In this document: in pieces, positions 1-17,324 of the stretch
How positions within the stretch are numbered: the first letter of the stretch is position 1
Layout of the letters: every line of letters begins with the position of its first letter
Source of the DNA: a virus
IMG/VR virus record: IMGVR_UViG_3300008259_004660
Span: 96,001-160,000 of that record
Direction: 5' to 3' (one strand)
DNA: 64,000 bases
The notes under the pieces: model-generated
The model's input: only the letters and a program-made list of their open reading frames with translations
Databases searched by the model: none
What the model was told of the DNA's origin: nothing
Position numbers and translations under genes: made by a program

Positions 1-174
1 GGTGGTGGAGGCGGTGGCGGATTTGCTGGATCGGGAGGAGCCGGTGGGGGCGACAATGATTTCGGGGGAGAAGCTGGAACAAATGGATATATGTGGACAG
101 GATCAATAGCGGCACTTGTATCATGGCAAACACCAAGTAGTTCAAGTGGAAATGGGTTTGTTAAAATTTACTAA
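1..174 (+). CDS. 3' end of a glycine-rich protein (partial; likely tail-fibre/virion protein)
   Basis: Frame 1 is open from the window edge: GGGGGGGFAGSGGAGGG...GNGFVKIY, with TAA at 172-174. Gly-rich C-termini of this kind are typical of phage fibre proteins. Confidence 0.6.
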   Translation, partial: GGGGGGGFAGSGGAGGGDNDFGGEAGTNGYMWTGSIAALVSWQTPSSSSGNGFVKIY

Positions 175-177
175 TAT

Positions 178-1617
178 ATGTCTAATACAATTGCATCACA
201 TGGTTATCCAACAGGAAGTGTTTTTGGAAACATTGGAGAAATAATTGGAACAGACGTAGGTCAAGCGTATTATAAACAATTGTTTGATACACAAAATGTG
301 GGATGGGTCAATCCAAGAACTCCAACGCCAACACCAAGTCCTACACCAACACCAACACCAGTTCCTGCTACTATAAGTAATTTTTTGTGTGAGACACTAC
401 ACGCGACAGCATCTACAAAATGTAACAACGAATTTAAATTACAATGGTCAACAACAGACGTTTCTGATTTGGTATATTCAGTTGAATGGGGAAGAGCGGC
501 AACAGCGGCAGACCCAGTTTATATTCTTGGATCATCAGCGACCACAATAACAAGTAGTACATTATTTTCTCCTACACCATTCTTATCGATTCCAAAAGGA
601 AATTTTGAACTCGGATTCACCAGACCATCTGGTGTTCAGGATACCGCAAAAATATTTGTTTCAACAATTGGTTCAAGAAAAATAGATTCTGCCAGATTAT
701 ATTCATACAACTCTGGGTCAAACACAGTATATATGGCTGTTGAGAATATATCTGGAAAATATATCTATCATATCAGAAACTCTGACGGAAAGGTTAGCGG
801 AAGTACTGGAGGATTTATCAGCAGTATTATAAGTGGATCTTCAAGACAAGTAATGTCAGTTACAAATTCTGGTAGAGATACCACTGAATTATTTGAAATA
901 ATTGAACCGATTGATACATTGTCTTTTGATCCAAGAGAAGTGAAGCCATGTTTTTCAATAGCACCCACGGCAACACCAACACCTACACCAACACCCGCTC
1001 CGACTACCACGCCAACGCCAACCACGACACCAACACCGACGCCGTCACTTACACCGACGCCTACGCCAACGGAAACTGGTGCGCCTACATTTACACCAAC
1101 CCCAACAGGTGCTCCAACTGCAACACCAACGCCAACACCGTCGTTGACCGCAACACCAACGCCAACAACAACGCCAACTCCTACACCAACGGCAGCACCT
1201 TCTCAATTTTTCACTCACTCATTTTGGTTAGACTTTGATAATCTAGGTAGAGCTTCAGCGTCATGGTTGGATGGAAATAATGTGGTGCAAACAAATGCAA
1301 TAACATCAGGTACTCCATTTACAACATGTATAAATGGATCATGCGCAAGACAAGACTCTATTTCAGTAATACATGGAACAAATTACAGAATAGCAAGTAC
1401 TTGTGGTGGGTTAGATCCTCGTTCTGCTTCATTTCAAATTGACGTTCTTACAAATTTGAACGGAGAATATAATTTTACATATAAAGATCCTTATGGAGTA
1501 ACCAGAATTGCATCTGGAGTGGCTTCACCGAGTACAAACACATATTCAGTTGCATGTGGATTCCAAATAGTTTCACAAACACTTGGTGTCGCATCATTGT
1601 CATCTCGTCGCTGCTAA
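178..1617 (+). CDS. Thr/Pro-repeat (mucin-like) putative virion fibre/appendage protein
   Basis: 479 aa. Two (TP)n blocks separate Ser/Thr-rich beta-type domains; the C-terminal domain contains Cys. Confidence 0.7.
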
Positions 1618-1751
1618 TATTTAAAACAGAAAAATGTTCTGAAAAATCCCTTGATGTAAAACCACGGATTTTTTCTTTGTTGAAGACACCTTCCTATACA
1701 GCGCAGATGTATATAAGCATGCCTAGCTCTATCTGACACTGTAAATCTCAT
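1614..1751 (-). CDS. Small basic/aromatic ORF (45 aa), absent from the ORF track
   Basis: Hand translation gives [45 protein letters not shown]. It fills the intergenic gap and is preceded on its own strand by tandem TATTTATT (1757-1768). Confidence 0.35.
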
Positions 1752-1791
1752 ATCGTAATAAATAAATAGTTATTTTTTTATTAAAAAGACA

Positions 1792-1819
1792 TTGACTTTA
1801 CATAAAATGGTGTCATTGT
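1792..1819 (+). promoter_or_regulatory. Putative sigma70-type early promoter
   Basis: TTGACT, 16 nt, then (TG-n)CATTGT, 9 nt before the ATG at 1829. Confidence 0.4.
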
Positions 1820-1828
1820 ATTTCGCGT

Positions 1829-2020
1829 ATGAGTAATACAACAAACAACAATATTAAACGTGGTCGCGGTCGTCCTCGCAAGGAGTCCACAATTAAAGCC
1901 GCCAATAAAAATGAAAATATTGATACTGGTATTCCTGCGCTCTTGGAACCAAACAGTCACGACATTCACGACGAACTGGCTCGTATGGATAGTTACATTT
2001 ATTCTCAGTACAACGAATAA
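1829..2020 (+). CDS. Small AT-hook DNA-binding protein
   Basis: KRGRGRPRK AT-hook core in a 63-aa protein. Confidence 0.6.
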   Translation: MSNTTNNNIKRGRGRPRKESTIKAANKNENIDTGIPALLEPNSHDIHDELARMDSYIYSQYNE

Positions 2021-2028
2021 AAACAAGC

Positions 2029-2220
2029 ATGAATAATAACACTGCTGAAAAAACAGAAACCGCAATGTATGCCGTTTTCCGAAATGGCTTCCGCGTTAGC
2101 GACTCGGAGTATGACTCCAAGCTAGACGCCCAACGAGAGTTGGATTATTGGGGAGGAATTATCAAGCGCCATCCTGATGGTAGTAAGCTTGAGATTCGTC
2201 AACTTAACTATCGTCGATAA
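2029..2220 (+). CDS. Hypothetical protein
   Basis: 63-aa ORF in tandem operon spacing. Confidence 0.6.
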   Translation: MNNNTAEKTETAMYAVFRNGFRVSDSEYDSKLDAQRELDYWGGIIKRHPDGSKLEIRQLNYRR

Positions 2221-2226
2221 AATATT

Positions 2227-2430
2227 ATGACAGGACTAAGACAAAAAATTCTACTAGCTACTTCCGAGGAAGAAGTAAAGAAGCTTGTAGCCGAAGGTAA
2301 AACATACGAATTTGCAAGTGTAAAGACTCGCAATTCGTGGGGAAATGCCGCTCGCAGAAAGTCTGCTGGTGAGAAGTATATTCCCACCAAGGCAGAAAAG
2401 CCCAAGAAGAAAGCTCGACGCAGTCGATAA
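2227..2430 (+). CDS. Small basic hypothetical protein
   Basis: 67 aa with a Lys/Arg-rich C-terminus, followed by a terminator. Confidence 0.6.
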   Translation: MTGLRQKILLATSEEEVKKLVAEGKTYEFASVKTRNSWGNAARRKSAGEKYIPTKAEKPKKKARRSR

Positions 2431-2436
2431 AAATAT

Positions 2437-2459
2437 GGGGAGCGAAAGCTCCCCTTTTT
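2437..2459 (+). terminator. Intrinsic terminator
   Basis: GGGGAGC-GAAA-GCTCCCC followed by TTTTT. Confidence 0.85.
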
Positions 2460-2463
2460 ATTC

Positions 2464-2922
2464 ATGAAAAAAATTTCCAAGAAAGAAAATGCGGCGATAC
2501 ATTGTGATTTACTTGAAGTGAATCCATTGTTTGGTGCAATGTGGCAAAGCTTTGAGCCGATGATATTTGAAGAAGAAGCGGAGAGTGTTGAATTGGAAAT
2601 ATGCAACAATAATTTCAGAATCGTTGCCAATGAAAACTTTTGGAAAAAGTGTAAGAATAAAAGAAAAATTTTTGTTATTTGTCACGAAATGTGTCATGTG
2701 ATTTTTGGACATTGGCTCATCAATTCAAATTTTGATAGAGAATGGGCAAATATAGCACAAGACATTGTGGTAAATGAATATCTTTCAAAATATTTTGATG
2801 AAAAGATAATTGGAAAAGATGTAGCCAACATTAAAACAGTATTTAAACATAAATCCGATATAGTAGAACGTAGGCTTGATTATGTATATTATTATGATCT
2901 TTTGATGCAATGTAGATCATAG
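2464..2922 (+). CDS. HExxH putative metallopeptidase domain protein (resembles the N-terminal domain of VWA-associated peptidases)
   Basis: FVICHEMCHV motif followed by NIAQDIVVNE. Confidence 0.6.
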   Translation: MKKISKKENAAIHCDLLEVNPLFGAMWQSFEPMIFEEEAESVELEICNNNFRIVANENFWKKCKNKRKIFVICHEMCHVIFGHWLINSNFDREWANIAQDIVVNEYLSKYFDEKIIGKDVANIKTVFKHKSDIVERRLDYVYYYDLLMQCRS

Positions 2923-2931
2923 TTATTTGAT

Positions 2932-3153
2932 ATGATGGTAGAGATCAAAGAGGACGAGCTTAAAACCAGAAAATTAAATGCTGGTGTGTTTATTTGCAAG
3001 TCGTGCAAAGACAACAAAGGAAAAATCGTTATGGTACAATATAAAACCAACGCGGAACCCGGAGTTTATTATCAATTTTGCGACGATTGTATGAAACTTA
3101 TGGGTACATGTGTACCATGTAAATCCAAATTGCCACCTAAGCCCCAACGCTGA
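2932..3153 (+). CDS. Small Cys-rich (zinc-binding) protein
   Basis: Three CxxC pairs (CKSC, CDDC, CVPC). Confidence 0.5.
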   Translation: MMVEIKEDELKTRKLNAGVFICKSCKDNKGKIVMVQYKTNAEPGVYYQFCDDCMKLMGTCVPCKSKLPPKPQR

Positions 3154-3415
3154 TTGGACCCCATCTTGGTGGCTTATCTGGACACTGTGAATGTGGCATA
3201 TATAGTTTCATAGTACTGCATCCACACAACATGCATTTACCTATGTTGTTGTATCCTGTTTTATCCCAATTAGGACAAGCCAAGCATATATCTTTTCTTT
3301 GTTGAAATTGTTCGTCTGAAACTTTCTGGAATCCATCTTTTGTTGCCCAATTAACTGCGGCAGTTCCTAGACTTTTTGCTTTGTCTATCAAATTTGGTTC
3401 TTTGCTTATATCCAT
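3137..3415 (-). CDS. Small Cys-rich phage protein (DUF6171-like pattern)
   Basis: R-x2-IC-x2-C...C-x2-CGC...K...CP...W pattern. It is the only well-supported minus-strand gene. Confidence 0.65.
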   Translation of the reverse strand: MDISKEPNLIDKAKSLGTAAVNWATKDGFQKVSDEQFQQRKDICLACPNWDKTGYNNIGKCMLCGCSTMKLYMPHSQCPDKPPRWGPISVGA

Positions 3416-3429
3416 AATACTTATATGTA

Positions 3430-3822
3430 GTGTTTGACCAAAATAAAAAATTAAACATACCTAAAAATTTTATCCTATTCGGACATAAGTATACTGTTGT
3501 TATAAAAAAAGATCTGTTTGAAACAGAAGGATGTTATGGAAATGCGGACGAAGATTTGAAATTAATCCAGCTACAGGGCGAAGGTGTGGTAAAAAGAAAA
3601 TACGAGGAAAATGGAAACACCTTTGAATCTGACATGACTATAACAAATGAAATGGTTATAGAAACATTCTTCCACGAGGTTATGCATATTGTGTTTGATG
3701 CAATGGGTGAAGAAGAACTGTCCGAGAATGAAAAGTTGGTGAATATATTAGGGAAAGCGTGGTTGGAGATATATTTATCTTCAGTATATGATCAAAAAGA
3801 CTCCGAAAAAAAAGAAGTCTAA
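3430..3822 (+). CDS. HExxH metallopeptidase-like phage protein
   Basis: ETFFHEVMHIV plus a downstream ENE; GTG start. Confidence 0.6.
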   Translation: MFDQNKKLNIPKNFILFGHKYTVVIKKDLFETEGCYGNADEDLKLIQLQGEGVVKRKYEENGNTFESDMTITNEMVIETFFHEVMHIVFDAMGEEELSENEKLVNILGKAWLEIYLSSVYDQKDSEKKEV

Positions 3823-4159
3823 TTCAAAGGTCACAGTAAAACACGAAGTTGTTGAACTTCCTTCCAACAACAAGGAGATGGAAGATTATGTTCTCTCCAA
3901 TCGGTTAGAAATAAATGAAAAAATATTAGATAACATAGAGTTTGCATTAAAAAATAAACTCGGTGGCGTTGAAATGTTTTGTTTCAAAAATTCAAATTTT
4001 GTTGTGGTATTGAATCGTAGAGACTTCAAGGAAAGTCTGCAAAACATATACGAATTTAGTATGAGTAACGAAAAATTTGAGGTCTGTATAAGAGTTAAAA
4101 ATCTTATCGACCTTGCTGATAAGTTCGGGTTCATCTATAACTACAAAACCAAAAAATAA
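3788..4159 (+). CDS. Hypothetical protein
   Basis: 123-aa ORF overlapping the previous gene. Confidence 0.6.
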   Translation: MIKKTPKKKKSNSKVTVKHEVVELPSNNKEMEDYVLSNRLEINEKILDNIEFALKNKLGGVEMFCFKNSNFVVVLNRRDFKESLQNIYEFSMSNEKFEVCIRVKNLIDLADKFGFIYNYKTKK

Positions 4160-4161
4160 AT

Positions 4162-4932
4162 ATGTCAAAAAAGAAAAGACTACAAAATAGGAAGATAAAA
4201 CAAGAAGAACAAATCAAATCTCAAATACCACCAAAAGACAAAAGTCCAGTAGTCCATCAACGAAACAAAATAGAACATTATTTGACAATATTACACAGAG
4301 AACTTACAGAGAAACAAAAAAAATTTATTGAATTAGCGTTAGACAAAAAAGTAAAATTGCTATTAGTATCGGGACCAGCGGGATCAACAAAAACATATCT
4401 TTCAGTTCTTGCAGCGTTGCTGTTAATGAATGAAAAGAAGATCAGCGACATTGTTTATGTTCGTAGTATCGTTGAAAGTGCCGACGTTAAAATGGGAACA
4501 TTACCCGGAGAAGCTGACGACAAATTATCTCCATATAAACGTCCACTTATCGATAAACTTGACGAACTTCTTCCAAAAGAAGACATTCAATATTTGATCA
4601 AAGATAACCGCATAGAAGGATTGCCAATTGGATATTTGCGCGGTCTTAACTGGAATGCAAAGGCAATCGTGGCAGATGAAATGCAAAATTGTACAAAGAA
4701 AGAGTTGGTTACGCTTATGACAAGAACGGGCGAATTTAGTAAAGTATTTGTGTGCGGCGACCCACAACAATCAGACATCAACGGAAGAAGTGGATTTCAA
4801 AGCATTTTCAATTTGTTCAATGACGATGAAAGTAAAGAGCATGGCATATATACATTTGAATTTACAGAGGACGACATATTAAGAAGTGCGCTAGTGAAAT
4901 TCATAGTGCAAAAAATCAAAAATCTAGGATAA
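4162..4932 (+). CDS. phoH: PhoH family ATPase
   Basis: GPAGSTKT P-loop, G.LPGE..DK..P motif, IGYLRG, ADEMQN, TRTG and GDPQQSD. Confidence 0.93.
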   Translation: MSKKKRLQNRKIKQEEQIKSQIPPKDKSPVVHQRNKIEHYLTILHRELTEKQKKFIELALDKKVKLLLVSGPAGSTKTYLSVLAALLLMNEKKISDIVYVRSIVESADVKMGTLPGEADDKLSPYKRPLIDKLDELLPKEDIQYLIKDNRIEGLPIGYLRGLNWNAKAIVADEMQNCTKKELVTLMTRTGEFSKVFVCGDPQQSDINGRSGFQSIFNLFNDDESKEHGIYTFEFTEDDILRSALVKFIVQKIKNLG

Positions 4933-4996
4933 TACATATAATAACTGCTTTTTTATAAAAGCCATCCAAATGGTATATATTTTTCTATTTGGGTGA

Positions 4997-5004
4997 TATT
5001 TATA
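4997..5004 (+). promoter_or_regulatory. Putative late-promoter motif TATTTATA
   Basis: 13 nt upstream of the ATG at 5018; recurrent motif. Confidence 0.55.
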
Positions 5005-5017
5005 ATGAAAAGATACT

Positions 5018-7525
5018 ATGTCCAATCAGAAAACAACCCAACTTCGTAGAGTCAGTGGCAGTCAACTTGTTTTTGGCGACTTGATTCCGTTGGTTGATAT
5101 TTCTGAAAATACATCTCCTACCGGAGAAACAAAAGCAATTTATGCTGGCGAGTTGGCCCAGTATATCATTTCTGGTGGACTTTTGAATGTTGCACTACCA
5201 AGACAGCCATACCAAACAACAAATGGTTTGGCTTTTAGTCAATCATCCAGCTACACTCCGGGATCAGGAACATCAAGTTATAATCTTCGTTGTTATGGAA
5301 ATTTTCCACAAGTGGGATCAAATTTCAGTTTGATGGTTCGCGGATTTATACCATCAACAATTTTGACAGAAGCAAATCCAAGAGTTTTGTTTGGTGTTGG
5401 AAATTCTCCTGACAATATAACATCGGGTGGACAGTCTGCATATATTGGCATTGAAGATTATGACTTGATTGGATATACAGACGATGGTGTTGCAACTAAG
5501 AAAATCATATTCAGCGATTTCATTGACAATTATTCTGACAGAGTATTTGAAGCTGTATTGACCAGAGATTCTTCAAGCTTGTTGAATTTGTATGTAAACA
5601 ATTCAAAGATTGGAGTTGGACTCAGTGGATCTGCCAGCACTATTACAAGTTCATATATCACATTAGGAAATGGTGACCAAACATTGCCAAACATTGAATG
5701 TACAATTTATGAGGCACATGTTTTTAATAAAGCACTTACTCAAGCTGAAGTAAATACATTGTTTTATGGTGGAGTAAGAAATTCTGATCCATATTTAGTA
5801 TCTTCATATACTCCAGTGAATTTGAATCCGGGTCCAACACAATGGTTGGATTCAAAAAGTTCAAATCACCTTCTACTTCCTACCAGCGGAGCAAAAGCAA
5901 CAAATCCAGATAAAGAATTCAGTTTAAGATTTGCAAATGATGGTACATCCAGTTTTCTTGGAAATGGAACCGAGCGAGCAATTCTTCCAGAAGGTTATGT
6001 TTTAACGGATGCGTTTGTATATTCTTCTGGCTCTCCACTTTTATCCATTGGGTCTACATCATCAGCCGCGCCGGTTGGAGCAAGTGGAATATATTCTTGG
6101 AACAACAACAGAGTTGCTTTGACAGAAGCAAAATACAGCAGAAATAATTTGCAACTTCTAGAATTGGGCGTCGCGCATAAAGACAGAAGTATATTCGTAT
6201 ATTACAGCGCAAGTGCGGCACCATGCACATTTAGTTTTGAAGGATATGTCGCAGAATATGGAGAGATTGTTTATTATCCACCAACACCTACACCAACGCC
6301 TACTCCAACTTTAACCGCAACACCAACGCCTACTCCAACTTTAACCGCAACACCAACGCCTACTCTAACTCTTACACCAACACCAACACCAACGGTTGGA
6401 CCTACACCAACACCAACACCAACGGGTGCGCCTACTTCAACGCCAACACCAACACCAACAACTGCTCCTACGGCAACTCCAACTCCGACACCAACATCAA
6501 CACCGCCCGGAGCACCAACTGCGACACCAACTCCAACTCCTACTCTGGGAATTCCATCAGTAGATGTTGCTCCTCAAGGAAGTGTTCCTGCTTACATAAA
6601 TATTCCATTTAATATAACAAGTACCGGAGCTTCAAATAATCTTAACAACATAACTTCTCACACAATATATGAGAGAAGTGGACCAACAGATCCTCCGACC
6701 GGAGGATGGGTGTCTTCTACGCTTACTAATCAGAGCCAAACTTCTTTACCATCAACAACATCAACCCGAGTTGATAGATACGACAACCCAGCACCAAGCA
6801 TAGCGGGTTATTATCAATTCAAAGCCGAGATTGTTGTCAACTCGGTTACATACACATCTATTTTATCGTCTGTATATTACATAGCAGCTGCACCAACGGC
6901 GACACCAACACCAACGGCAACTGTAGCAACGGCGACACCAACACCAACGCCGACCGCAACTGGAAACCCAACAAACACACCAACACCAACACCAACTGCT
7001 ACAATAGCACAAACAAACACACCAACACCAACACCAACTGCTACAATAGCACAAACAGACACGCCAACACCAACACCGACTGCTACAATAGCACAAACAG
7101 ACACGCCAACACCAACACCGACTGCTACAATAGCGCCGGACTGTGCATGCTATGATCTTGTCTGTAATTCAAACGGTGACTTTTCTGGAACCCACTACGA
7201 TTGCAGTACAGGAAATGCAGTAAGTGTAACTGATACAGGAAACGCGCCGGGACAAGTTATCCAATCGGTGTGTGCAAGATCTTCAAATCCAGCTGCACCT
7301 AATGCGTCGGTAGGATCTTATACACAAGTTTGGCCGGCATGCCCATGCCCGGGTGCAACAAGTACACCAACGCCAACGCCAACAATTGGAGCAACCAATA
7401 CCCCAACACCTACACCAACAGAAGCGCCGACGCCAACGCCGACCCCGACAACATACGGTGGGTTTGCACCTCCACCCGAAGGGGAGGACATAGGAGCAAA
7501 CTCACAAAACGTACCTTTCCCATAA
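5018..7525 (+). CDS. Virion fibre-like protein: LamG/concanavalin-like domain, (TP)n mucin-like linkers and a Cys-rich domain
   Basis: N-terminal KTTQL...DLIPLVD...TKAI fibre-anchor-like motif, LamG-like [16 protein letters not shown], several TP blocks, and a Cys-rich module near the C-terminus. Confidence 0.7.
6291..6370 (+). repeat. 30-bp coding tandem repeat, about 2.7 copies
   Basis: caccaacgcctactccaactttaaccgcaa repeated at 6291, 6321 and partly at 6351. Confidence 0.85.
6971..7138 (+). repeat. 42-bp coding tandem repeat, 4 copies (T[N/D][12 protein letters not shown])
   Basis: Four near-identical units visible in both DNA and protein. Confidence 0.85.
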
Positions 7526-7532
7526 TATTTAA

Positions 7533-7751
7533 ATGAAAGAATATATAAACAGAAGTTTTAGTATAGTTACTGAAAATTTACTCAAGTGTAAAGCTGAGAA
7601 TTTCAAGGTGTTTTATGAGAACGAATTAAATCAATCATTCGAAATTGGTGGATATATGATAAATGGAGATTATACTTTTGTAAAAATGAAAGAAGCTGGA
7701 AACTTTTTCAGAATAAAAGACAACGAAAAGATATACATTCTTCGCAATTAA
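7533..7751 (+). CDS. Hypothetical protein
   Basis: 72-aa ORF. Confidence 0.5.
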   Translation: MKEYINRSFSIVTENLLKCKAENFKVFYENELNQSFEIGGYMINGDYTFVKMKEAGNFFRIKDNEKIYILRN

Positions 7752-7809
7752 TTTTTCGTTGTTTATAATGGTTTTAAAAATAATAGTATAGACAAGCATT
7801 ACTAAAAAT

Positions 7810-7826
7810 GTAGATATAATATCTAC
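7810..7826. promoter_or_regulatory. 17-bp palindrome overlapping TATAAT (operator-like)
   Basis: GTAGATAT-A-ATATCTAC, with TATAAT at 7815-7820. Confidence 0.45.
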
Positions 7827-7859
7827 TATGCAAAATAATACGATTTAATTTATTATTGC

Positions 7860-7887
7860 TTGCATATATATGATAAAAGTCTATAAT
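7860..7887 (+). promoter_or_regulatory. Putative sigma70-type promoter of glycosylation cluster 1
   Basis: TTGCAT, 16 nt, TATAAT, 10 nt before the ATG at 7898. Confidence 0.5.
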
Positions 7888-7897
7888 ACAAAGTTAT

Positions 7898-9157
7898 ATG
7901 AAAAAAAATAATGATCTAATATTCGTGCAGATAGCATCATATCGTGATCCAGAATTGGTTCCTACCATCAAGGACATGATTGCCAAAGCGAAACATCCAG
8001 AAAAATTAACATTTGGTATTTGTTGGCAAAAAGATGAAACGGAAAATCTTGATGAATTCATCGACAATCCAAATTTCAGAATTGAAACATATCATTATTC
8101 AGAAAGCCAAGGACTGGGTTGGGCTAGAAACATAACAAACAAGTTGTATCGTGGGGAAAAATACACCTTGCAGATTGATAGTCACCATCGTTTTGTTCAA
8201 GATTGGGATGCAATGATTCTTGAAGATTATGATCAGGCTTTGTCGGTTGCAAAAAAACCAATCATAAGCACATATTGTACACCATTTGACACTGCGTTGC
8301 CGATTGAAAAAGCAAGCCCAGTACCATGCTTGATGTCACAATATGAATTTAGCAATGACAAACTTTTGATGAGCATGCCTCATTACATTGGAGATTATGA
8401 GAAGCGAACCAAAATTATTCGCGCTCGCACGTTGAGTGGACATTTCTTTTTTGTTGCTGGAAAATTTATTGAAGAAGTACCATATGATCCAGACATTTAT
8501 TTTGGTGGATACACTGAAGAAACAACTATGAGTGTTCGTGCATATACACATGGATATGATTTCTTCAGCCCATACAGAATGATTATGTGGCATGAATATA
8601 CTCGCAAATATCGTCCAAAGCATTGGGATGATCACGGCAAGGAAAGTGCCACAAAGAAGACAAGTGGTGAGAGAGATATTTATGCAAGAAAGAAAACTCG
8701 CCAATTGTTCGGACAAGAAGAACATGGAATTGATATGGGAATTTATGGATTAGGAAAGGTTCGCTCTTTGCATGATTATGAAGTATACGGAGGTTTTAAT
8801 TTCAAAGCATGTAAAATACAAGATTATACTCTATTGGTAAAAGAACCACCGAATCCACCTGATTGGGAGGCGCAATTCAAAAAAGAAAGACTCAAAATGA
8901 ATGTTGCATGGGATGTAGGACATTTCATGGAAGAAGACACTGGAGATTTTGAATTCATCACATTTGGCGTCGTTGACAAATATGACACAAATTTGTTCAG
9001 AGTTGATTTCAAACCATCAACTCATCCTGAAATATTCACATACAAGAAAAGTTCAATTGATGTAGAGATAATTTCAGATAACAAGCCAGACAGAGTAATA
9101 ATGTATTCTTTTAGCAAATCAAAACAGTGGGGTAAGCGTTACGAGAAAAAACTATGA
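7898..9157 (+). CDS. GT60-like polypeptide/hydroxyproline N-acetylhexosaminyltransferase (Skp1 Gnt1 / GlcNAc-T family)
   Basis: IFVQIASYRDPEL, GLGWAR, YTLQIDSHHRFVQDWD, SGHFFF, YFGG..EE..MSVRAYTHGYD and WHEY motifs. Confidence 0.8.
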   Translation: MKKNNDLIFVQIASYRDPELVPTIKDMIAKAKHPEKLTFGICWQKDETENLDEFIDNPNFRIETYHYSESQGLGWARNITNKLYRGEKYTLQIDSHHRFVQDWDAMILEDYDQALSVAKKPIISTYCTPFDTALPIEKASPVPCLMSQYEFSNDKLLMSMPHYIGDYEKRTKIIRARTLSGHFFFVAGKFIEEVPYDPDIYFGGYTEETTMSVRAYTHGYDFFSPYRMIMWHEYTRKYRPKHWDDHGKESATKKTSGERDIYARKKTRQLFGQEEHGIDMGIYGLGKVRSLHDYEVYGGFNFKACKIQDYTLLVKEPPNPPDWEAQFKKERLKMNVAWDVGHFMEEDTGDFEFITFGVVDKYDTNLFRVDFKPSTHPEIFTYKKSSIDVEIISDNKPDRVIMYSFSKSKQWGKRYEKKL

Positions 9158-10332
9158 GAATATTGTTCACTGTTTTAGGAAACAGTCGTCGTAGTAATTA
9201 TCTTGACGGAGAAACATTAAGATATGGAAACGGCGGTGGATCTGGGACTGATACCAGTTCAATAATAGTTGCTGAACAACTCGCCGCACAAGGCCACGAT
9301 GTGGTGTTTTGTTCAGACAAACTAGAACCACTGTTGGAAGAGTCTTATGCCAAAAAAGGAATTGTATTTAATGCAGGAAAGAAAGTTCGTGGTGTAATAT
9401 ACACGAACTTTCAGTTGGATAATGTTGAAAACAAAACATTTGATGTGTTGGTAAACAGTCTATGGTTCAGTAAGTACAAAGAGTTACCAGTCAAAATCAC
9501 AAAGGCTGTAATCTATTGGTGTCATATGCAATGGATTTATGGAATTGGCGAGATGATTGAGTATGTCAAGGAAAACAACCTAACCCTCGGATTTGTTCAT
9601 ATTTCAGAATGGGAAAAGAGCATGACAAATCCAGTTGTACAGGATGCTTGTAACAAATTGCCAAATACAAAGGTTGTTACGATACCAAATCCTATAATGG
9701 ATGACATGATTGAAGAAGTGTTGAGTGAGAAGATAGAAAAGAAAAGCGGGTCATTTATTTTTCATCCACTTTGGGCAAGAGGAGGAAATGTGGCAGTACA
9801 AGCGGTACGTGAACTTGATTTTCCAGAAAAAGAATTCAACGCATTTGATTATCTCATGTGCATTCATGGTCACACTGATCCATTCTTTAGAAATCATAAT
9901 GGTGTGGACAAGAAAACCTTGTTCAGATGTTTGGCAAAGAGTGACTATTTCATTTATCCACTGTATACTCCATACAAGGATGTTCACAAAGATACATTTT
10001 CGTGTGTTGTTGCAGAGGCAATTGCTATGGGCGTAACTGTAGTAACATACCCATTAGGTGCATTACATGATAACTTTGATGGATATTGCGCATGGTTAGA
10101 TTTTCCACCAGATACTGATCCTATAAAGATGCAAAAGGAACAATTGTCAAAGGACGAAGAAGGCAAGTTCAATTACACAAAGAACATAGTTGAAAAGGTC
10201 AAATATTTGGAAGCCAATACTGAATTTAAAAACAAAGTAAGAACCCAAGGCAAAGATTTCATATTTGAGAAATTTAATTCCAACAAAGTAGGACTGATGT
10301 GGCGCGATTTTATTTCACAGTTAACATCATAA
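9154..10332 (+). CDS. GT-B (GT4-like) glycosyltransferase, paralog A
   Basis: GGGSGTD loop and KDTFSCVVAEAIAMG donor-binding motif. Confidence 0.75.
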   Translation: MRILFTVLGNSRRSNYLDGETLRYGNGGGSGTDTSSIIVAEQLAAQGHDVVFCSDKLEPLLEESYAKKGIVFNAGKKVRGVIYTNFQLDNVENKTFDVLVNSLWFSKYKELPVKITKAVIYWCHMQWIYGIGEMIEYVKENNLTLGFVHISEWEKSMTNPVVQDACNKLPNTKVVTIPNPIMDDMIEEVLSEKIEKKSGSFIFHPLWARGGNVAVQAVRELDFPEKEFNAFDYLMCIHGHTDPFFRNHNGVDKKTLFRCLAKSDYFIYPLYTPYKDVHKDTFSCVVAEAIAMGVTVVTYPLGALHDNFDGYCAWLDFPPDTDPIKMQKEQLSKDEEGKFNYTKNIVEKVKYLEANTEFKNKVRTQGKDFIFEKFNSNKVGLMWRDFISQLTS

Positions 10333-10336
10333 TATC

Positions 10337-11515
10337 ATGAGAATAGCAATCATAGTAATAGGAAACAGCAGACGAAACAATTATCTGAACGGTCATAATC
10401 TCAGATATGATGGTGGAGGGGCATCTGGCACAGACACTAGTTCAATGCTTGTTGCTGAATATTTGGCAAGCAAAGGACATGAGGTTGTAATGACTGTGGA
10501 TGAATTGGAGCCATTACTTGAAGAGAAACTACAAAAGCAGGGAAAGAAGTTTGTGCCCGGAGCAAAAAGTTATGGTGTTTCATACACAAATAAAAACTTC
10601 GACGGTATTGAGAATAAAACTTTTGATGTATTGATAAACATGCTTTGGTTTCAAGACTATGACAAGCTTCCTATTACAGTAACCAAGAGTTTGATTTATT
10701 GGTGTCATATGCAATGGGTATATGGGATAGATGCACATATGGCATATGCAAGAAAACACAATCTTACTCTCGGAATGGTTAATGTTTCGACTTGGCAAGC
10801 TAGTGTGTCACAGAATGTTATAAATCATGTCAAAGCCAATTACGAAAAAACAAAGCAATTCCTAATTTCAAATCCAATTTTTGATGAAATGATCAGAGAG
10901 GTTGAGCAGGAACCAATTCAAAAGAAGAAAGGTAAGTTTATATTTCACGCCACATGGCCAACGGGTGGAGATGTTGCAATGCAGGCAGTCAGAGAGTTGG
11001 ATATGCCAGAAAAACAGTTTCATGCATTTGATTATTTCATAACGGTGCATGGTCATACTGAGTCATATTTCCACAACCATCAAGCGGTGGATAGAAAAAC
11101 ACTTTACAAACACTTGGCTGAAAGTGAATATTTCATATATCCATTGTATACCATACACAAGGTTTTGAGAAAAGATACATTTGCATGCACTGTTGCAGAG
11201 GCTCTTGCTTTTAACACAATTGTATTAACATATCCACTTGGTGCATTGCCAACTGTGTTTGGTGACAAGTGTGTTTGGTTGGATGCCCCTCCGGGCACTA
11301 ACCTCGATGAGCTTCAACGTGCTGATTTGGCAAGAGACGAAGAAGGAAAGTTCAAATATACAAAAAATATCGTGGATAAGATAAACTATCTTGAAGCTAA
11401 CCCAGAGATAAAGGAAAAATATAGAACTGGTGGAAGACAATATGTGCTTGAAAATTTTAATATTAACAAGATTGGAAAAATGTGGGAGGATTGCTTGGAG
11501 GAATTGACAAAATGA
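10337..11515 (+). CDS. GT-B (GT4-like) glycosyltransferase, paralog B
   Basis: Same length (392 aa) and colinear with the previous gene; KDTFACTVAEALA motif. Confidence 0.75.
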   Translation: MRIAIIVIGNSRRNNYLNGHNLRYDGGGASGTDTSSMLVAEYLASKGHEVVMTVDELEPLLEEKLQKQGKKFVPGAKSYGVSYTNKNFDGIENKTFDVLINMLWFQDYDKLPITVTKSLIYWCHMQWVYGIDAHMAYARKHNLTLGMVNVSTWQASVSQNVINHVKANYEKTKQFLISNPIFDEMIREVEQEPIQKKKGKFIFHATWPTGGDVAMQAVRELDMPEKQFHAFDYFITVHGHTESYFHNHQAVDRKTLYKHLAESEYFIYPLYTIHKVLRKDTFACTVAEALAFNTIVLTYPLGALPTVFGDKCVWLDAPPGTNLDELQRADLARDEEGKFKYTKNIVDKINYLEANPEIKEKYRTGGRQYVLENFNINKIGKMWEDCLEELTK

Positions 11516-12210
11516 AAATAGAAAATTTCTTTGAAAAAGGATACTATATAAATCTGGACAGAAGAACAGACAGAAACGAGCTTTTTCGTAAAGAAATGGA
11601 TAGAGTTGGGTTGCTATCTTTTTTTGAAAGAGTTTCCGCTGAAGATGGTATAAATGAACCAGATCCAATGAAGAGGCATGCGTACTGTGCATATACTTAT
11701 CACAAATTATTCAAGAAAATATACGATCTCGGATATGAAAGAGTGCTGATTTTTGAAGATGATGCATTTTTCTATGACAGACCAGAAATATCAGGAAGAG
11801 ATTTGGCGGAAAAAGCATTGGACGATCTAAAATATTTTCCAAATTGGGACATGGTTTTGTTTGGAGGAAGACCCGTGGATACAGTTGGACCTCTGCAAAT
11901 AATGACAGACAATCTTTTCAGATCACAAATGGTTCTAGGAACTCACGCCGTTGGATACAGAAGAAAAGTTATCAAGAAGGTACTTGATGAATATGTTCCA
12001 TTTCAAGATGGTACGATTGATGGTTGGTATGGTAATGTTCCTGTCATAGAAAAATATCTGGTAAACCCCCTCGCATGTGGAGCTATGCCCGTTAAAAGTG
12101 ATTTGGACGGCAATGGCTATATATCAAACGTTAAAGATGATATCATTTGCTATGATAGAGTGCCAAAAATAGACAAACGCCATGAAACACAAAGTAATAA
12201 GCCTGTATAA
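11512..12210 (+). CDS. GT25-like glycosyltransferase
   Basis: YYINLDRRTDR, C..TY and VLIFEDDA motifs. Start moved to the ATGA overlap at 11512. Confidence 0.75.
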   Translation: MKIENFFEKGYYINLDRRTDRNELFRKEMDRVGLLSFFERVSAEDGINEPDPMKRHAYCAYTYHKLFKKIYDLGYERVLIFEDDAFFYDRPEISGRDLAEKALDDLKYFPNWDMVLFGGRPVDTVGPLQIMTDNLFRSQMVLGTHAVGYRRKVIKKVLDEYVPFQDGTIDGWYGNVPVIEKYLVNPLACGAMPVKSDLDGNGYISNVKDDIICYDRVPKIDKRHETQSNKPV

Positions 12211-12871
12211 ATCGGATATTGACTATACGATAGTTGAATTGCAAAAGAAAGTTTTTGATTATTTTTCAATTCCTCTTGAGCAAATTTCATTCGATGGCAT
12301 GCATTCTACTGCCATTGAAAAATATGTGAAAAATAACAATGATTGGGACAGTATAACCATATTTGATGTTGATTGCATTCCCATCACACATGATTGTGTA
12401 TCAAGAGCAATCAAGGAAATATCAGACAATAATACCATCTATGGGAATGGACAGGCTTCCAACTCAATATTTCCAACAACACCAAGAACTCCTCCTTTTA
12501 TAGCACCAAGTTTTCTAAGCTTCAGCAGAGATTTATGGGAAAGATCTCCATTCAAGAATTTTGATTTTCAAAGATATCCAAATCCAGAAGGAATTTCTAT
12601 GGAAGCTGATGTGGCGGAGGTATTCACCAGAGAAAATGAAAAAGCTGGAAGAAGAATAGCTATGAATTATCCAACCAGATGTTTAACTGGTATAGCATGG
12701 AATTATTTCGGCGGATATGGCTATAAGGAATTTGGTTTTGGAATTGCAACGGAGTTTGAAAGCGGAACATATCATAATTTTCAAATCAGATTGCCAGAGA
12801 AACAAAAATACTTCTTTGATTATTGCGACAAATTGATGCGCGGAGAAAAAATTGAAAGTTTTGTATCATGA
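12182..12871 (+). CDS. Putative GT-A fold glycosyltransferase
   Basis: ITIFDVDCIP DxD motif; cluster context. Confidence 0.5.
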   Translation: MKHKVISLYKSDIDYTIVELQKKVFDYFSIPLEQISFDGMHSTAIEKYVKNNNDWDSITIFDVDCIPITHDCVSRAIKEISDNNTIYGNGQASNSIFPTTPRTPPFIAPSFLSFSRDLWERSPFKNFDFQRYPNPEGISMEADVAEVFTRENEKAGRRIAMNYPTRCLTGIAWNYFGGYGYKEFGFGIATEFESGTYHNFQIRLPEKQKYFFDYCDKLMRGEKIESFVS

Positions 12872-13692
12872 AGGAAATGACCAGCAATTATATCACTTGC
12901 AGACTGCAAGGCAGAACAGGAAACATAATGTTTCAGATAGCAAACGGCTACGCTCAGTCGTTAAAACATAATAGACAGTTTGTTGTTCCGTCAAAAGAAT
13001 CAACAACCAGTCATTTGGAAAAAGGATTGTTCAGAAAATTTGACTTTAGAATAAACACTATCCCGTCAAACAATATTGCACATCATATTTGGGCACCTTT
13101 TACATACAAAGAATTTGCTCCAGCAGAAGACAGACCCACGGCTTTCTGTGGATGGTATCAATCTGAAAAATACTTTGGAAACTATAAAGAAGTAATAAGA
13201 GATGCATTTAGTCCAACTACGGAATTTGTAATAAAAGCAACAAAAGAATTTCCGTTTTTAAATTCAGCCAGAGTTGCCGCCATAAATGTAAGAAGAGGAG
13301 ATTATCTCACCCAACCAAGACATCATCCAGTTGTGACATTGGATTATATAGAAGAAGCAAGAAAACTTCTGCCACAACATGATTATCTAATGGTTCTTAG
13401 TGATGATTTTGAATGGTGTAAGAACAACATCAAAGGAAATAACATCATATTTCCAAGCAACTATGTTGATCAGGATGCTATGTGGCTATTATCAATGTGT
13501 GATGATTTTATTATTTCAAACTCTACATTCAGTTGGTGGGGTGCATTCTTATCAAGAACAAAAAACAAGGTGGTTATATCTCCATCCACGTGGTTTGGAC
13601 CAGACATACATGAAGATCCTTCTGATGTTTGGTGTGAAGGTTGGATAAAAGTTCCAACAAAATGGAAAGACGGTTTTATTGTAATGGAATAA
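12868..13692 (+). CDS. GT11 alpha-1,2-fucosyltransferase-like protein
   Basis: LQGRTGNIMFQ, GWYQSEKYF, INVRRGDY, SDDFEWC and ISNSTFSWWGAFL motifs. Confidence 0.88.
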   Translation: MKEMTSNYITCRLQGRTGNIMFQIANGYAQSLKHNRQFVVPSKESTTSHLEKGLFRKFDFRINTIPSNNIAHHIWAPFTYKEFAPAEDRPTAFCGWYQSEKYFGNYKEVIRDAFSPTTEFVIKATKEFPFLNSARVAAINVRRGDYLTQPRHHPVVTLDYIEEARKLLPQHDYLMVLSDDFEWCKNNIKGNNIIFPSNYVDQDAMWLLSMCDDFIISNSTFSWWGAFLSRTKNKVVISPSTWFGPDIHEDPSDVWCEGWIKVPTKWKDGFIVME

Positions 13693-13693
13693 T

Positions 13694-14803
13694 ATGTACG
13701 ACTATCTAATAGTAGGAGCAGGATTTTTTGGAAGCATATGCGCTTATGAACTAAACAAGATTGGAAAGAAAGTCTTGGTGATTGATGTGCGCAATCATAT
13801 TGGTGGAAATTGCTATAGCGAAAATAGGGATAATATCAACCTACATGTTTATGGTCCACATATATTTCATACTTCAGACGAAGAGGTTTGGAAGTGGATC
13901 AATCAGTTTACATCGTTTAATAACTTCATATACACCCCCGTGGCTAATTATGATGGAGAGTTGTATTCTTTACCATTTAACATGTGGACGTTTTATCAGC
14001 TATGGGGAGTGCAAAGTGAAGAAGAAGTAAAAGCAATAATAGCCAAACAATCGGCCCATATTGGTGAGCCAAAAAATCTTGAAGAACAAGCAATCAAGTT
14101 GGTTGGTAGAGATGTGTATGAAACATTGATCAAAGGGTACACGGAAAAACAGTGGCGCAAAAAGGCGACAGAGTTGCCAAAAGAGATTATCAAGAGACTG
14201 CCAGTAAGATACACTTTTAACAACAACTATTTCAATGATAAGTATCAAGGTATTCCAATTGGTGGATACACTCAGATATTTGAAAAGCTTTTAAAAGGAA
14301 TAGATGTCAAAACTGGTGTTGATTATTTCAAGGACGAATTGCCGCCTCATGACAGAGTGATATACACAGGTCCGATTGATAAATTCTATGGATACAAATA
14401 TGGACATCTCGAATACAAGACTGTTTCGTTAGATCATATGAGAATGGAAACTCCAAATTATCAGGGAGTCGCCGCTATAAATTACACAAGTGAAAAAGTT
14501 CCATTCACTCGCACCATAGAACATAAACATTTCGAAAATTCACAGAGTGATGTGACTTGGGTAAGTTGGGAAACGCCAATCCAATATGTTCCAGAAAAAA
14601 CAGAGCCATATTATCCTGTAAATGATGCTGCCAATATGGAAATATTGAAAAAGTACAAGGAAGAATCATCAAAGCAAGACAAAGTGATATTCGGTGGTAG
14701 ACTTGGTGAATACAAATATTATGACATGCACCAAGTTATACGCAGTGCGTTGGATTGTGCAAATCATCTCAAATATTTGGAAGTTTGGCATCCAAAAGTG
14801 TGA
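13694..14803 (+). CDS. glf: UDP-galactopyranose mutase
   Basis: YDYLIVGAGFFG, HIGGNCY, HVYGPHIFHT, YQGIP.GGYT, EPYYP and GRLGEYKYYDMHQV motifs. Confidence 0.95.
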   Translation: MYDYLIVGAGFFGSICAYELNKIGKKVLVIDVRNHIGGNCYSENRDNINLHVYGPHIFHTSDEEVWKWINQFTSFNNFIYTPVANYDGELYSLPFNMWTFYQLWGVQSEEEVKAIIAKQSAHIGEPKNLEEQAIKLVGRDVYETLIKGYTEKQWRKKATELPKEIIKRLPVRYTFNNNYFNDKYQGIPIGGYTQIFEKLLKGIDVKTGVDYFKDELPPHDRVIYTGPIDKFYGYKYGHLEYKTVSLDHMRMETPNYQGVAAINYTSEKVPFTRTIEHKHFENSQSDVTWVSWETPIQYVPEKTEPYYPVNDAANMEILKKYKEESSKQDKVIFGGRLGEYKYYDMHQVIRSALDCANHLKYLEVWHPKV

Positions 14804-14959: not shown

Positions 14960-15406
14960 ATGAGTACACTAAGTAGATATACACGGGATGAGTTTCTCAC
15001 CCCATTTGATCGTCTATTTGACGATGTCTTCAATAACTTCGGCGTAACACCTTACGCTGGGTCTTATACCAAGAACAGCTATCCAAAAGTAGATGTTGTT
15101 GAGTATGATGACAGGTATGTGCTTGAAGCGGATGTTGCTGGATTGAACAAGGAAGAAGTTTCCGTGGATCTTGAAGGCGATACACTAGTAATCAAAGGAG
15201 GCAAAAGAACAAACCATGAAAATACAAATAAAGGAAAATATCTGTATAAAGAAATTAAGCGTTCTAGTTTCACACGCTCGTTTAGTGTGGGAGAAGGTAT
15301 TGACAAAAATAAAATCAAAGCCGACTTCGCAAACGGAACAATAAAAGTTGATCTTCCTAAACTGAAGATTGAAGAACAAAAGCCAAAAACATTGAGGCTC
15401 CTATAA
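14960..15406 (+). CDS. hsp20: Small heat-shock protein (Hsp20/alpha-crystallin)
   Basis: YPKVDV.E, AGLNKEEVSV, EIKRSSFTRSF and A.F.NGTIKVDLPK motifs. Confidence 0.93.
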   Translation: MSTLSRYTRDEFLTPFDRLFDDVFNNFGVTPYAGSYTKNSYPKVDVVEYDDRYVLEADVAGLNKEEVSVDLEGDTLVIKGGKRTNHENTNKGKYLYKEIKRSSFTRSFSVGEGIDKNKIKADFANGTIKVDLPKLKIEEQKPKTLRLL

Positions 15407-15411
15407 AATAG

Positions 15412-15453
15412 TTGACAATGTTTGGGGCTAGGTTTATTCTTAGCCCCAAACAT
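15412..15453 (+). promoter_or_regulatory. sigma70-type promoter of dnaK with its -10 inside a 13-bp inverted repeat
   Basis: TTGACA (15412-15417), 17 nt, TATTCT (15435-15440). Arms ATGTTTGGGGCTA (15418-15430) and TAGCCCCAAACAT (15441-15453). Confidence 0.55.
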
Positions 15454-15464
15454 ATTATAAATTT

Positions 15465-17324
15465 ATGACTAAATCAAATGACATTGTTATTGGTATTGAC
15501 CTTGGCACGACGAATTCGTGCGTGGCTGTATGGCAAGCGGGTGAAGCTACAGTAATTACCAACTCGGAAGGTGCTCGTACTACCCCTTCGGTTGTTGCTT
15601 TTACAAAAAGCGGGGAAAGACTTGTTGGTCAAGCTGCTAAGAGACAGGCGGTGACCAATCCAAAGAATACAATTTTTTCGGCCAAGAGACTTATTGGTCG
15701 CAAGTTCAACGAAGTGCAGGAAGAAATCAAGAATCTTCCATACAAGGTCGTTGAAGGTCCAAATGGAGATGCTTGGATCGAAGTAACAGAGAACGGAGAA
15801 GCTAAGAAATATTCTCCTCAACAGATTGGCGCATTTGTTCTTGGAAAGATCAAAACCGATGCCGAATCATATTTGGGACAATCTGTGAAGAAGGCGGTTA
15901 TCACAGTACCTGCGTATTTTAATGATTCTCAACGTCAAGCTACCAAGGATGCTGGCACTATTGCCGGTTTGGAAGTTCTGCGTATTATCAACGAACCTAC
16001 CGCAGCATCCTTAGCCTATGGTCTAGACAAGAAGAAAGACGAGAAAATTGCCGTCTTTGACCTTGGCGGTGGTACGTTTGACGTTACCGTTCTCGAAATT
16101 GGGGACGGTGTATTTGAAGTTAAAGCCACCAATGGTGATACGCATCTTGGTGGTGATGATTGGGACAGAGCAATCATGGACCACATGGTTGCGGAATTCA
16201 AAAAAGAAAATGGTATTGACTTGTCCAAAGATAATATGGCTTTACAGCGTCTACGCGAAGAAGCCGAAAAAACCAAGATTGCTTTGTCTTCTGCAACATC
16301 ATATGATGTAAATCTCCCGTTTATCACGGCGGATGCATCTGGCCCAAAGCATTTGAATATGACAATTTCTCGTTCAAAAATGGAACAAATCTGCGAGAAG
16401 TTGTTTGAAAGAATGGATGCTCCATATAAGAACTGTTTGAAGGATGCTGGTGTATCAAATAGTGAACTCAATGAGCTTGTGCTTGTTGGTGGCATGACAA
16501 GAATGCCAAAGGTTGTTGATTATGCCAAGAAGTTCGGTGGTAAAGTTCCAAATCAAGGTGTAAATCCAGATGAAGTTGTGGCAGTCGGTGCCGCTGTACA
16601 AGGTGGTGTATTGAAGGGTGAGGTCAACGACGTATTGTTGCTTGACGTTACTCCGCTGACCCTTGCGATTGAAACCGCAGGAAATGTTGCGACGGCAATG
16701 ATTCCTCGTAACACAACAATTCCTGCTAAGAAGTCACAAGTGTTCTCCACATACAGCGACAATCAGCCTTCCGTTGATATTGTTGTATTACAGGGTGAGC
16801 GCCCAATGAGCAAAGACAATAAGCGTCTTGGAAACTTCAAACTGGACGGCATTCCGCCAGCACCAAGAGGCACTCCTCAAATTGAAGTGACGTTTGACAT
16901 TGACGTAAACGGCATTCTTCATGTCTCTGCAAAAGATCTTGGAACGGGCAAAGCTCAAGATATCACCATTCAAGGTTCATCTGGTCTTTCAAAGGAAGAA
17001 GTTGAAAGAATGAAGCAAGAAGCTGAAGCAAATGCTGATAAAGACAAAGAACTCAAGGAAAATCTTGAGACCAAGAATTCTCTTGACAATATTATCTATG
17101 GTTGGGAAAAACAACTAAAGGATGGTAACTTTGAAGATTCTGTCAAAACCGAAATTCAAAAAGGTATTGACAAAGGCAAAGAAGTGTTACAGAGTGGTGA
17201 TGTTGGAAAAATGAAAGATACTATCTCTGAACTTAGCAAACTCGGAGAACTTGTTTATAAGAACAAGTCTAATGGTGGGAAAGGAACTCCAGAAGATCCA
17301 ATCGAACCAGAAGTAGTAAGCTAA
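15465..17324 (+). CDS. dnaK: Molecular chaperone DnaK (Hsp70)
   Basis: [53 protein letters not shown] and [14 protein letters not shown] motifs; full length at 619 aa. Confidence 0.98.

Follow-up and report, generated by a model that had tools for sequence, protein, structure and literature searches.

A T4-like phage represented by the IMG/VR virus record IMGVR_UViG_3300008259_004660 probably glycosylates its own adhesin-like proteins in the cytoplasm, by means of a GT60-family glycosyltransferase that would initiate O-linked glycans on linkers built of threonine-proline (TP) repeats. The genes that lead us to this reading lie in the window analyzed here, the 64,000-bp stretch formed by bases 96001-160000 of a 184,824-bp contig estimated to be 78% complete, so that all absences on the contig are provisional. 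The phage was identified as T4-like by its T4-type major capsid protein (PF07068, E-value (E) 1e-77; genome 164288-165904), and its nearest cultured relatives according to this protein are Microcystis phage Mel-JY01 (58%) and Flavobacterium phage immuto (56%). An initial annotation, based on the DNA letters, had proposed that the phage builds a mucin-like glycan coat on its own fiber linkers. The enzyme family and its pairing with TP genes agree with that proposal, whereas the presence of sugar on the TP tracts, their virion location, the sugars used and the role of a coat are put forward here in conditional terms. The "jumbo" phages of that annotation do not fit a contig of 185 kb. The enzyme families and folds, the solubility of the proteins, the gene order, and the co-occurrence and adjacency with TP proteins were obtained directly. 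The genes of central interest are the following:

178-1617, plus strand: P0001, TP-tract protein of 479 amino acids (aa), candidate acceptor
5018-7525, plus strand: P0002, 835 aa, main candidate acceptor, with a LamG/concanavalin-like N-terminus, three TP blocks, a middle domain and a Cys-rich domain
7898-9157, plus strand: P0003, soluble GT60-family glycosyltransferase, 419 aa, putative initiating polypeptide O-glycosyltransferase
9154-10332, plus strand: GT4a, probable GT-B-type glycosyltransferase, 392 aa, PHROG 2170
10337-11515, plus strand: GT4b, second probable GT-B-type glycosyltransferase, 392 aa, PHROG 2170, 56% identical to GT4a
11512-12210, plus strand: GT25-family glycosyltransferase, 232 aa from ATG 11512 (alternative start GTG 11482)
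12182-12871, plus strand: GT-A-fold glycosyltransferase, 229 aa, with an invariant D62-V-D64 and a predicted fold of 96.3 in predicted local distance difference test (pLDDT)
12868-13692, plus strand: GT11-family transferase, 274 aa (PF01531 E 5e-26; phrog_2644 E 1.7e-52)
13694-14803, plus strand: UDP-galactopyranose mutase Glf, 369 aa, predicted supplier of UDP-galactofuranose (UDP-Galf) (PF03275 E 1e-70)

The product of the first gene of the glycosyltransferase cassette, P0003, matches PF11397 with 202.5 bits (E 1.7e-59, cut-off 21) over profile positions 2-44 and 96-350 of 352. Its residues 3-327 form a GT-A catalytic domain whose fold is most similar to the catalytic domain of the GT27 polypeptide N-acetylgalactosaminyltransferases (ppGalNAc-Ts), so that profile and structure searches, which the initial annotation had recommended, bear out its GT60-like label. 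An alignment of 37 full-length homologs revealed that D94-x-H96, H232, R98 and E208 are invariant, and D94, H96 and H232 appear to lie at the metal site. Sequence (phmmer) and profile searches of PDB with P0003 returned no match, GT27 included, and a Pfam scan gave PF11397 as its sole family; by sequence, therefore, P0003 is not a member of GT27. With an E threshold of 1e-3, 4,458 representative proteins fall in the GT60 family, whose characterized enzymes are polypeptide alpha-N-acetylglucosamine (alpha-GlcNAc) transferases, related to GT27, with either Thr/Ser mucin domains or the hydroxyproline of Skp1 as acceptors (PMC8724618, PMC6939170). Residues 330-419 of P0003 (window 8885-9157) constitute a confidently modeled beta domain, conserved among bacterial homologs, that might bind substrate or act like a lectin; P0003 showed no recognizable ricin-type lectin domain, although residues 330-419 were not searched on their own. 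Elsewhere in the family, the 2,461-aa P0005 (L203:8001-15386) and its 2,022-aa relative P0004 carry four GT60 domains fused with a peroxiredoxin and two 2-oxoglutarate-Fe(II) (2OG-Fe(II)) oxygenase domains of the prolyl 4-hydroxylase (P4H) type. P0005 lies among tatABC, serS and surE, on a contig of bacterial housekeeping genes, and the predicted fusions are a Rosetta-stone link of GT60 with proline hydroxylation outside eukaryotes.

Long TP tracts are present in both proteins singled out by the initial annotation, P0001 and P0002, but their number had been underestimated, as the genome encodes at least nine TP-run proteins, with clusters that include genome 42113-47430 and 92855-97617. The TP blocks of P0001 span residues ~47-63 and ~262-340 of its sequence, and those of P0002 residues ~421-500, ~655-735 and ~785-810, the second of them consisting of four copies of a 14-residue repeat that opens with T[ND] and ends, in the final copy, in P. 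The first 420 residues of P0002 form a LamG/concanavalin-like module, a type common among tailed-phage proteins, to which some homologs add Ig-like domains; a tblastn search with this LamG part across 50,697 phage records gave no match. Orthologs of P0002 hold the same position in L003, L004 and L110 (L and G numbers being the labels of the compared loci and records), and a second TP protein of the genome has two LamG domains. No family match in Pfam or PHROG was obtained for the globular domains of P0001, with atlas scores all below 0.8, and after repeat masking P0001 groups with P0002 and with proteins of L003 and L004. Another TP protein of the genome, of 764 aa (L115:3222-5516, genome 44222-46516), is globular at its N-terminus and also contains a TP linker and six repeats of ~48 aa (DKAIFGYG...SLTNLVSNTGVVATDTTGVGT.R), and has no Pfam match. 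Many TP proteins (L003:953-1909, L016:8926-9957, L025 and L026) carry Cys-rich C-terminal domains, though without signal peptides, and these domains would fold in the cytoplasm.

The distribution of TP genes around GT60 was assessed in a scan of viral contigs that yielded 26 loci with a GT60 homolog, 25 of which were used in the offset count. A TP-rich gene occupies offset -1 in 11 of the 25 loci and offset -2 in 5 of 23, compared with 6 of the 345 genes beyond +/-2, an enrichment (Fisher P = 3e-9) obtained on loci that are not independent. Merging GT60 at 75% identity leaves ten lineages, and in six of them a TP gene is no more than two genes away. Repeat-masked TP proteins fall into 13 unrelated clusters, and about eight of these lie a few genes from GT60 in different lineages; inherited synteny of one gene pair thus cannot account for the pattern. 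At the level of whole records, strict TPTPTPTP coding was detected in 16/23 GT60-positive records and in 1/23 GT60-negative T4-like relatives (P = 6.6e-6), a comparison that is weakened by its combining two sets chosen by different criteria. The sole GT60-negative record with a TP run is fragmentary and derives from a phage whose capsid protein is 98% identical, and TP runs are absent from GT60-negative contigs of 130, 157 and 251 kb. All runs in G035, G036, G037 and G043 lie within ~3 kb of GT60, and those listed for the complete 297-kb genome G003 are found 1 kb (three) and 8 kb (one) from it. GT60 and TP-repeat genes hence co-occur and adjoin in several phage lineages, as the initial annotation had anticipated, with real exceptions. 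In G009, G013 and G014, GT60 stands alone beside an Ig/I-set protein, a TIG protein and Ser/Thr-rich fiber-like proteins with short P/T linkers only, and in L023 the cassette is located one gene downstream of a 1,940-aa tail fiber with an S74 chaperone domain. Such loci fit surface proteins as acceptors, yet long TP runs are not required in them.

The pairing extends to cultured phages. Full-length GT60 homologs with ~35% identity are encoded by the Xanthomonas jumbo phage XacN1 (ORF334) and by Xoo-sp13, RAS14 and CM1, which share this trait with the phage under study, and TP runs occur in the three of these genomes that were scanned (five in XacN1, eight in Xoo-sp13 and three in RAS14); the GT60-negative Mel-JY01 and immuto have none. 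One of the XacN1 runs falls in ORF325 (3,313 aa), whose gene immediately follows those of the baseplate wedge. In XacN1 virions at least two glycoprotein bands are Schiff-positive and were ascribed by the authors to the phage's own transferases, neither the stained glycoproteins nor the responsible enzyme having been identified (PMC5852040). XacN1 differs from the phage studied here in the partner genes of GT60, which are a carbamoyltransferase and a GT9 gene. At the loci of XacN1 (L197) and of other Xanthomonas/Stenotrophomonas jumbo phages (L200, L201), GT60 is followed by a 765-aa carbamoyltransferase, and not by GT-B or Glf genes, a gene content that suggests a carbamoylated glycan in this lineage.

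Four further features of the window bear on the TP genes and their surroundings:

1-174, plus strand: 3' end of a 353-aa gene (genome 95113-96174) whose product has a small domain at its N-terminus, together with a TP linker and a Gly-rich tract
4997-5004, plus strand: promoter-like motif TATTTATA, 21 bp before the start codon of P0002
7533-7751, plus strand: 72-aa open reading frame (ORF) of unassigned function, located between P0002 and the cassette
17443-18990, plus strand: membrane and coiled-coil protein of 515 aa with a C-terminal TP tail, possible further acceptor

The 353-aa gene is the first of a two-gene unit with P0001, and orthologs of the 17443-18990 protein lack the tail in relatives without TP runs. 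Exact instances of TATTTATA also occur 22 bp ahead of the start codon of the 353-aa gene and 12 bp upstream of the 17443-18990 gene. Across the genome the motif is found 22 times on the plus strand, 20 of them at 12-37 bp before a start codon; within the window its plus-strand sites are 4997, 17431, 21012, 23752, 34626, 37812, 43448, 49502, 54243, 60863 and 62841, with the others elsewhere in the genome. The portal gene and other large genes of the structural region are among those that it precedes, and so are genes of 1055, 1300 and 3407 aa. Allowing up to one mismatch, TATTTATA is present on 7/9 TP genes, compared with 54/215 plus-strand genes overall (P = 0.001), and the remaining two TP genes sit directly after a motif-bearing TP gene, while none of the cassette genes carries it. 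The occurrence of the motif on both TP genes and the portal gene suggests co-expression of TP and structural genes, and TATTTATA may be regarded as a candidate late promoter of this T4-like clade. T4 itself uses TATAAATA. A different motif, TTTTTATA, lies 32-34 bp ahead of a run of small genes (genome 75631-88263) and may mark another promoter class. A sigma-70 promoter scan returned fewer sites than in shuffled sequence, and the timing of the cassette cannot be inferred from it.

A place on the virion surface is probable for the TP proteins. The "virion-like" label given to them by the initial annotation is favored by their LamG/Ig-type modules, by the motif common to the portal gene, and by fiber or decoration proteins holding the same position in relatives, although all of this evidence is indirect. 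In a hydropathy scan, a crude method on which all transmembrane and signal peptide calls reported here are based, eight of the nine TP proteins show neither transmembrane segments nor signal peptides, the exception being the membrane protein at 17443-18990.

GT60 heads a seven-gene operon (7898-14803) whose adjoining genes overlap by 4 or 29 bases or sit 1-4 bases apart, and a 372-bp gap, which contains the 72-aa ORF, separates the end of P0002 (7525) from the GT60 start (7898), in keeping with the tightly coupled operon described in the initial annotation ~370 bp past the second TP gene. All seven proteins are devoid of transmembrane segments and signal peptides. The annotation had listed the genes after GT60 as two GT4-like, a GT25-like, a DxD protein, a GT11 and a UDP-galactopyranose mutase. 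GT4a and GT4b match PHROG 2170 "glycosyltransferase" over their full length (E 1e-8 and 9e-5, respectively), and through this match they are probably of GT-B type; their assignment to GT4 did not stand, as every Pfam match was below cut-off (22.8 bits or less), and the GT4a profile found no match in PDB. The remaining labels were all substantiated. The GT25 gene, for which ATG 11512 is a more likely start than GTG 11482, is borderline as a single sequence against Pfam (24.6 bits, cut-off 24), and its ortholog profile matches solved GT25 enzymes, with procollagen galactosyltransferase 1 at E 5e-14, mimivirus R655 at E 3e-11 and a bacterial GT25 at E 3e-7. The DxD protein has a true GT-A fold (pLDDT 96.3, invariant D62/D64); it belongs to no Pfam, PHROG or NCBIfam family, PDB returned nothing for it by sequence or by profile, and its best Foldseek matches (E ~1e-5, TM ~0.5) are mimivirus R699, beta4GalT7, the glycosyltransferase domain of LH3 and STIV A197. 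GT11 matches PF01531 with 92.1 bits (cut-off 23.9) over positions 30-296 of 298, and Glf matches TIGR00031 at equivalog level (389.8 bits, cut-off 303.75). The characterized members of GT11, as far as known, are alpha-1,2-fucosyltransferases. The cassette is modular and recurs across loci as GT60 followed by GT4a and then, optionally, by the novel GT-A, GT25, GT11 and Glf genes. Across loci GT4a accompanies GT60 more constantly than any other gene, and the minimal GT60-GT4a-Glf cassettes of L003, L013, L017, L020 and L021 have it as their only other transferase.

In the mechanism that we infer, from acceptor and donor sugars through the sequence of extension steps to virion location and benefit, soluble GT60 (7898-9157) would move the first sugar from a UDP-sugar onto the Thr hydroxyls of the (Thr-Pro)n tracts in the cytoplasm, the acceptors being P0002, P0001 and about seven other proteins of the genome, modular and of LamG/Ig type. 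By analogy with the GT60 family, the first sugar would most likely be alpha-GlcNAc. Thr is favored over hydroxyproline because no P4H-type oxygenase (PF13640, PF13661 or PF13759) is encoded on the contig. A route through hydroxyproline was considered and is disfavored on the same grounds, yet bacterial fusions of GT60 with P4H-type domains exist. GT4a would then add the second sugar, possibly Galf, from UDP-Galf supplied by Glf; a probable use of this donor follows from GT4a being the sole other transferase in the minimal cassettes. GT25, the novel GT-A protein, GT4b and GT11 would extend or cap the glycan, and for the addition of fucose the host would have to supply GDP-fucose. The modified proteins, which probably sit on the virion surface, would carry a linker or coat that is stiff, mucin-like and resistant to proteases.

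Several observations weigh against this proposal, starting with the provisional character of every absence noted above. No annotated structural homolog was found for the TP proteins, and their PHROG matches (phrog_15511) span only the repeat and give no function. For GT60 members of phages and bacteria, the activity is a prediction from sequence. The contig carries no gene for GDP-fucose synthesis (no GDP-mannose dehydratase), and GT11 would consequently rely on host GDP-fucose or use another donor. Among relatives selected by their capsid protein alone, strict TP runs occur in 1/4 GT60-positive and 1/23 GT60-negative records, which is a weak link. In L005 and L007-L009 the cassette is full but the surrounding 10 kb hold no TP protein, and strict runs are missing from the 67 kb of G031 and the 91 kb of G033. 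Bacterial GT60 homologs (Acidobacteriaceae, Verrucomicrobiota and Alphaproteobacteria) have a TP protein within 8 kb in 15 of 80 loci. Finally, GT25, GT11, GT-B transferases and Glf are, according to their family descriptions, typical of lipopolysaccharide (LPS) and O-antigen clusters.

This last point leads to the alternative that survives best, though we consider it unlikely, in which the cassette acts during infection on a glycan of the host envelope (LPS core, O-antigen, capsule or wall polymer) and remodels it, for example to block superinfection, with the TP proteins as unrelated neighbors. Besides the enzyme families, PHROGs class all cassette genes as "moron, auxiliary metabolic gene and host takeover", the surroundings consist of auxiliary genes (PhoH, Hsp20, Hsp70 and peptide deformylase (PDF)), the cassette lacks TATTTATA, bacterial GT60 homologs are mostly without TP neighbors, and some phages have full cassettes without TP proteins. 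However, no polyprenyl-phosphate initiating transferase, flippase, polymerase or ligase is found on the contig, the absence extending to Wzx-, Wzy- and WaaL-like proteins and to any ORF with more than four transmembrane segments (as judged by the crude hydropathy scan on a contig 78% complete), and the cassette proteins are all soluble. Moreover, characterized GT60 members all act on polypeptides (PMC8724618), the fold of P0003 is nearest to ppGalNAc-Ts, and envelope remodeling would leave the adjacency to several unrelated TP families unexplained. Modification of host LPS and of DNA had both been named as rivals in the initial annotation, and no support was found for either.

We rank second, and likewise regard as unlikely, the explanation that GT60 glycosylates proteins outside the virion, be they non-structural proteins that the phage releases at lysis or proteins of the host, or that it attaches the sugar to other parts of the TP proteins, whose tracts would serve as plain linkers. 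That the TP proteins have no detectable structural homolog, that one of them is a membrane protein (17443-18990), and that G009, G013 and G014 have GT60 alone beside Ig or TIG proteins with short P/T linkers only would all agree with it. Acceptors on the virion are better supported by the promoter-like motif common to the portal gene, by the S74 tail fiber or Ig/TIG decoration-type proteins beside GT60 in relatives, and by XacN1, where a TP run falls in the 3,313-aa protein after the baseplate wedge genes and the virions hold glycoproteins.

It is improbable that GT60 and TP genes are merely co-cargo of a hypervariable island without an enzyme-substrate relation. In the window and in L003, L004, L110 and L111-L113, GT60 always lies in a slot of varying content between PhoH and either Hsp20 or a membrane protein, as a shared island would predict. 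Nonetheless, the pairing recurs without nearby PhoH or Hsp20 (L006-L021, L025, L026 and L028) and, at genome level, in unrelated Xanthomonas/Stenotrophomonas jumbo phages, and, apart from this, related genomes contain hardly any TP runs. Hypermodification of phage DNA with glycan, as in T-even phages and their relatives, is very improbable: the phage is T4-like and phage transferases reportedly make glycans of various kinds on DNA (Pyle et al. 2024 via PMC12619734), but a ThyA-family hydroxymethylase (PF00303) is absent from both the contig and the complete GT60-positive genome G003, ThyX being present, no T4-type DNA glucosyltransferase was found (with a model whose control also matched nowhere), and neither the GT60 fold nor the TP association fits.

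GT60-initiated glycosylation of TP linkers would find close counterparts among protists. The Gnt1 enzymes of Dictyostelium and Toxoplasma, which act on Skp1 hydroxyproline, and the polypeptide alpha-GlcNAc transferases of Trypanosoma cruzi and Dictyostelium, which act on mucin Thr/Ser, share PF11397 and the DxH motif with P0003. P0003 is soluble, as is cytoplasmic Gnt1, and the Pro-rich Thr acceptors of the mucin-type enzymes resemble the candidate TP tracts. In the Skp1 pathway Gnt1 acts first, followed by a beta-1,3-galactosyltransferase and an alpha-1,2-fucosyltransferase (PMC6939170), and in the phage cassette GT60 is likewise followed by GT25 and GT11. Unlike these systems, the one considered here belongs to a prokaryotic virus, its GT60 has an extra C-terminal beta domain, and extension involves other families (GT-B, GT25, the novel GT-A, GT11 and Glf/Galf). 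Animal GT27 ppGalNAc-Ts are type II Golgi membrane proteins, which P0003 is not, and show no detectable sequence match with it.

Among viruses, transferases of the mycobacteriophages Che8, Corndog and Myrna O-glycosylate the phages' own structural proteins in the cytoplasm (Freeman et al. 2023 via PMC12363180, PMC12619734). Their acceptors are the C-terminal tails of capsid and tail tube subunits, whereas the candidates here are the TP linkers of modular LamG/Ig-type proteins; the capsid protein of this phage (genome 164288-165904) is not among its TP-run proteins, and its tail tube protein was not identified. GT60 is not mentioned for the mycobacteriophage enzymes in PMC12363180 and PMC12619734. 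Giant viruses (Mimivirus R655 and R699, chlorovirus Vp54) also have virus-encoded, host-independent glycosylation of surface proteins, and the GT25-like gene resembles Mimivirus R655 by profile (E 3e-11) and the novel GT-A protein R699 by fold, but these are viruses of eukaryotes, with other initiating chemistry and other acceptors. A literature search linking GT60 or PF11397 with phages returned nothing relevant, and the GT60-TP pairing in phages therefore appears undescribed, phage-encoded virion O-glycosylation as such being already known in mycobacteriophages.

The auxiliary genes that surround the cassette include, directly 3' of it, Hsp20 and a full-length Hsp70/DnaK (861 bits; window 14960-17324), and PDF (19054-19668) follows this pair.

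To our knowledge, mucin-type protein O-glycosylation, in which GT27 or GT60 enzymes place the first sugar on Pro-rich Thr/Ser tracts, is regarded as a eukaryotic trait, and we know of phage virion glycosylation documented only in mycobacteriophages, aside from the unexplained glycoprotein bands of XacN1. If GT60 modifies the TP tracts, tailed phages would make their own mucin-like glycoproteins in the bacterial cytoplasm, which would bear on the resistance of fibers to proteases and grazers, on sticking to surfaces or mucus, and on the setting of host range. It would also bear on the origin of the GT60/GT27 lineage and would provide soluble enzymes for the production of mucin-type glycopeptides in bacteria. 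Freshwater tailed phages may run a complete, host-independent, cytoplasmic mucin-type O-glycosylation in which GT60 initiates on TP tracts and lineage-specific, swappable cassettes, here for Galf and probably fucose, give rise to phage-specific coats.

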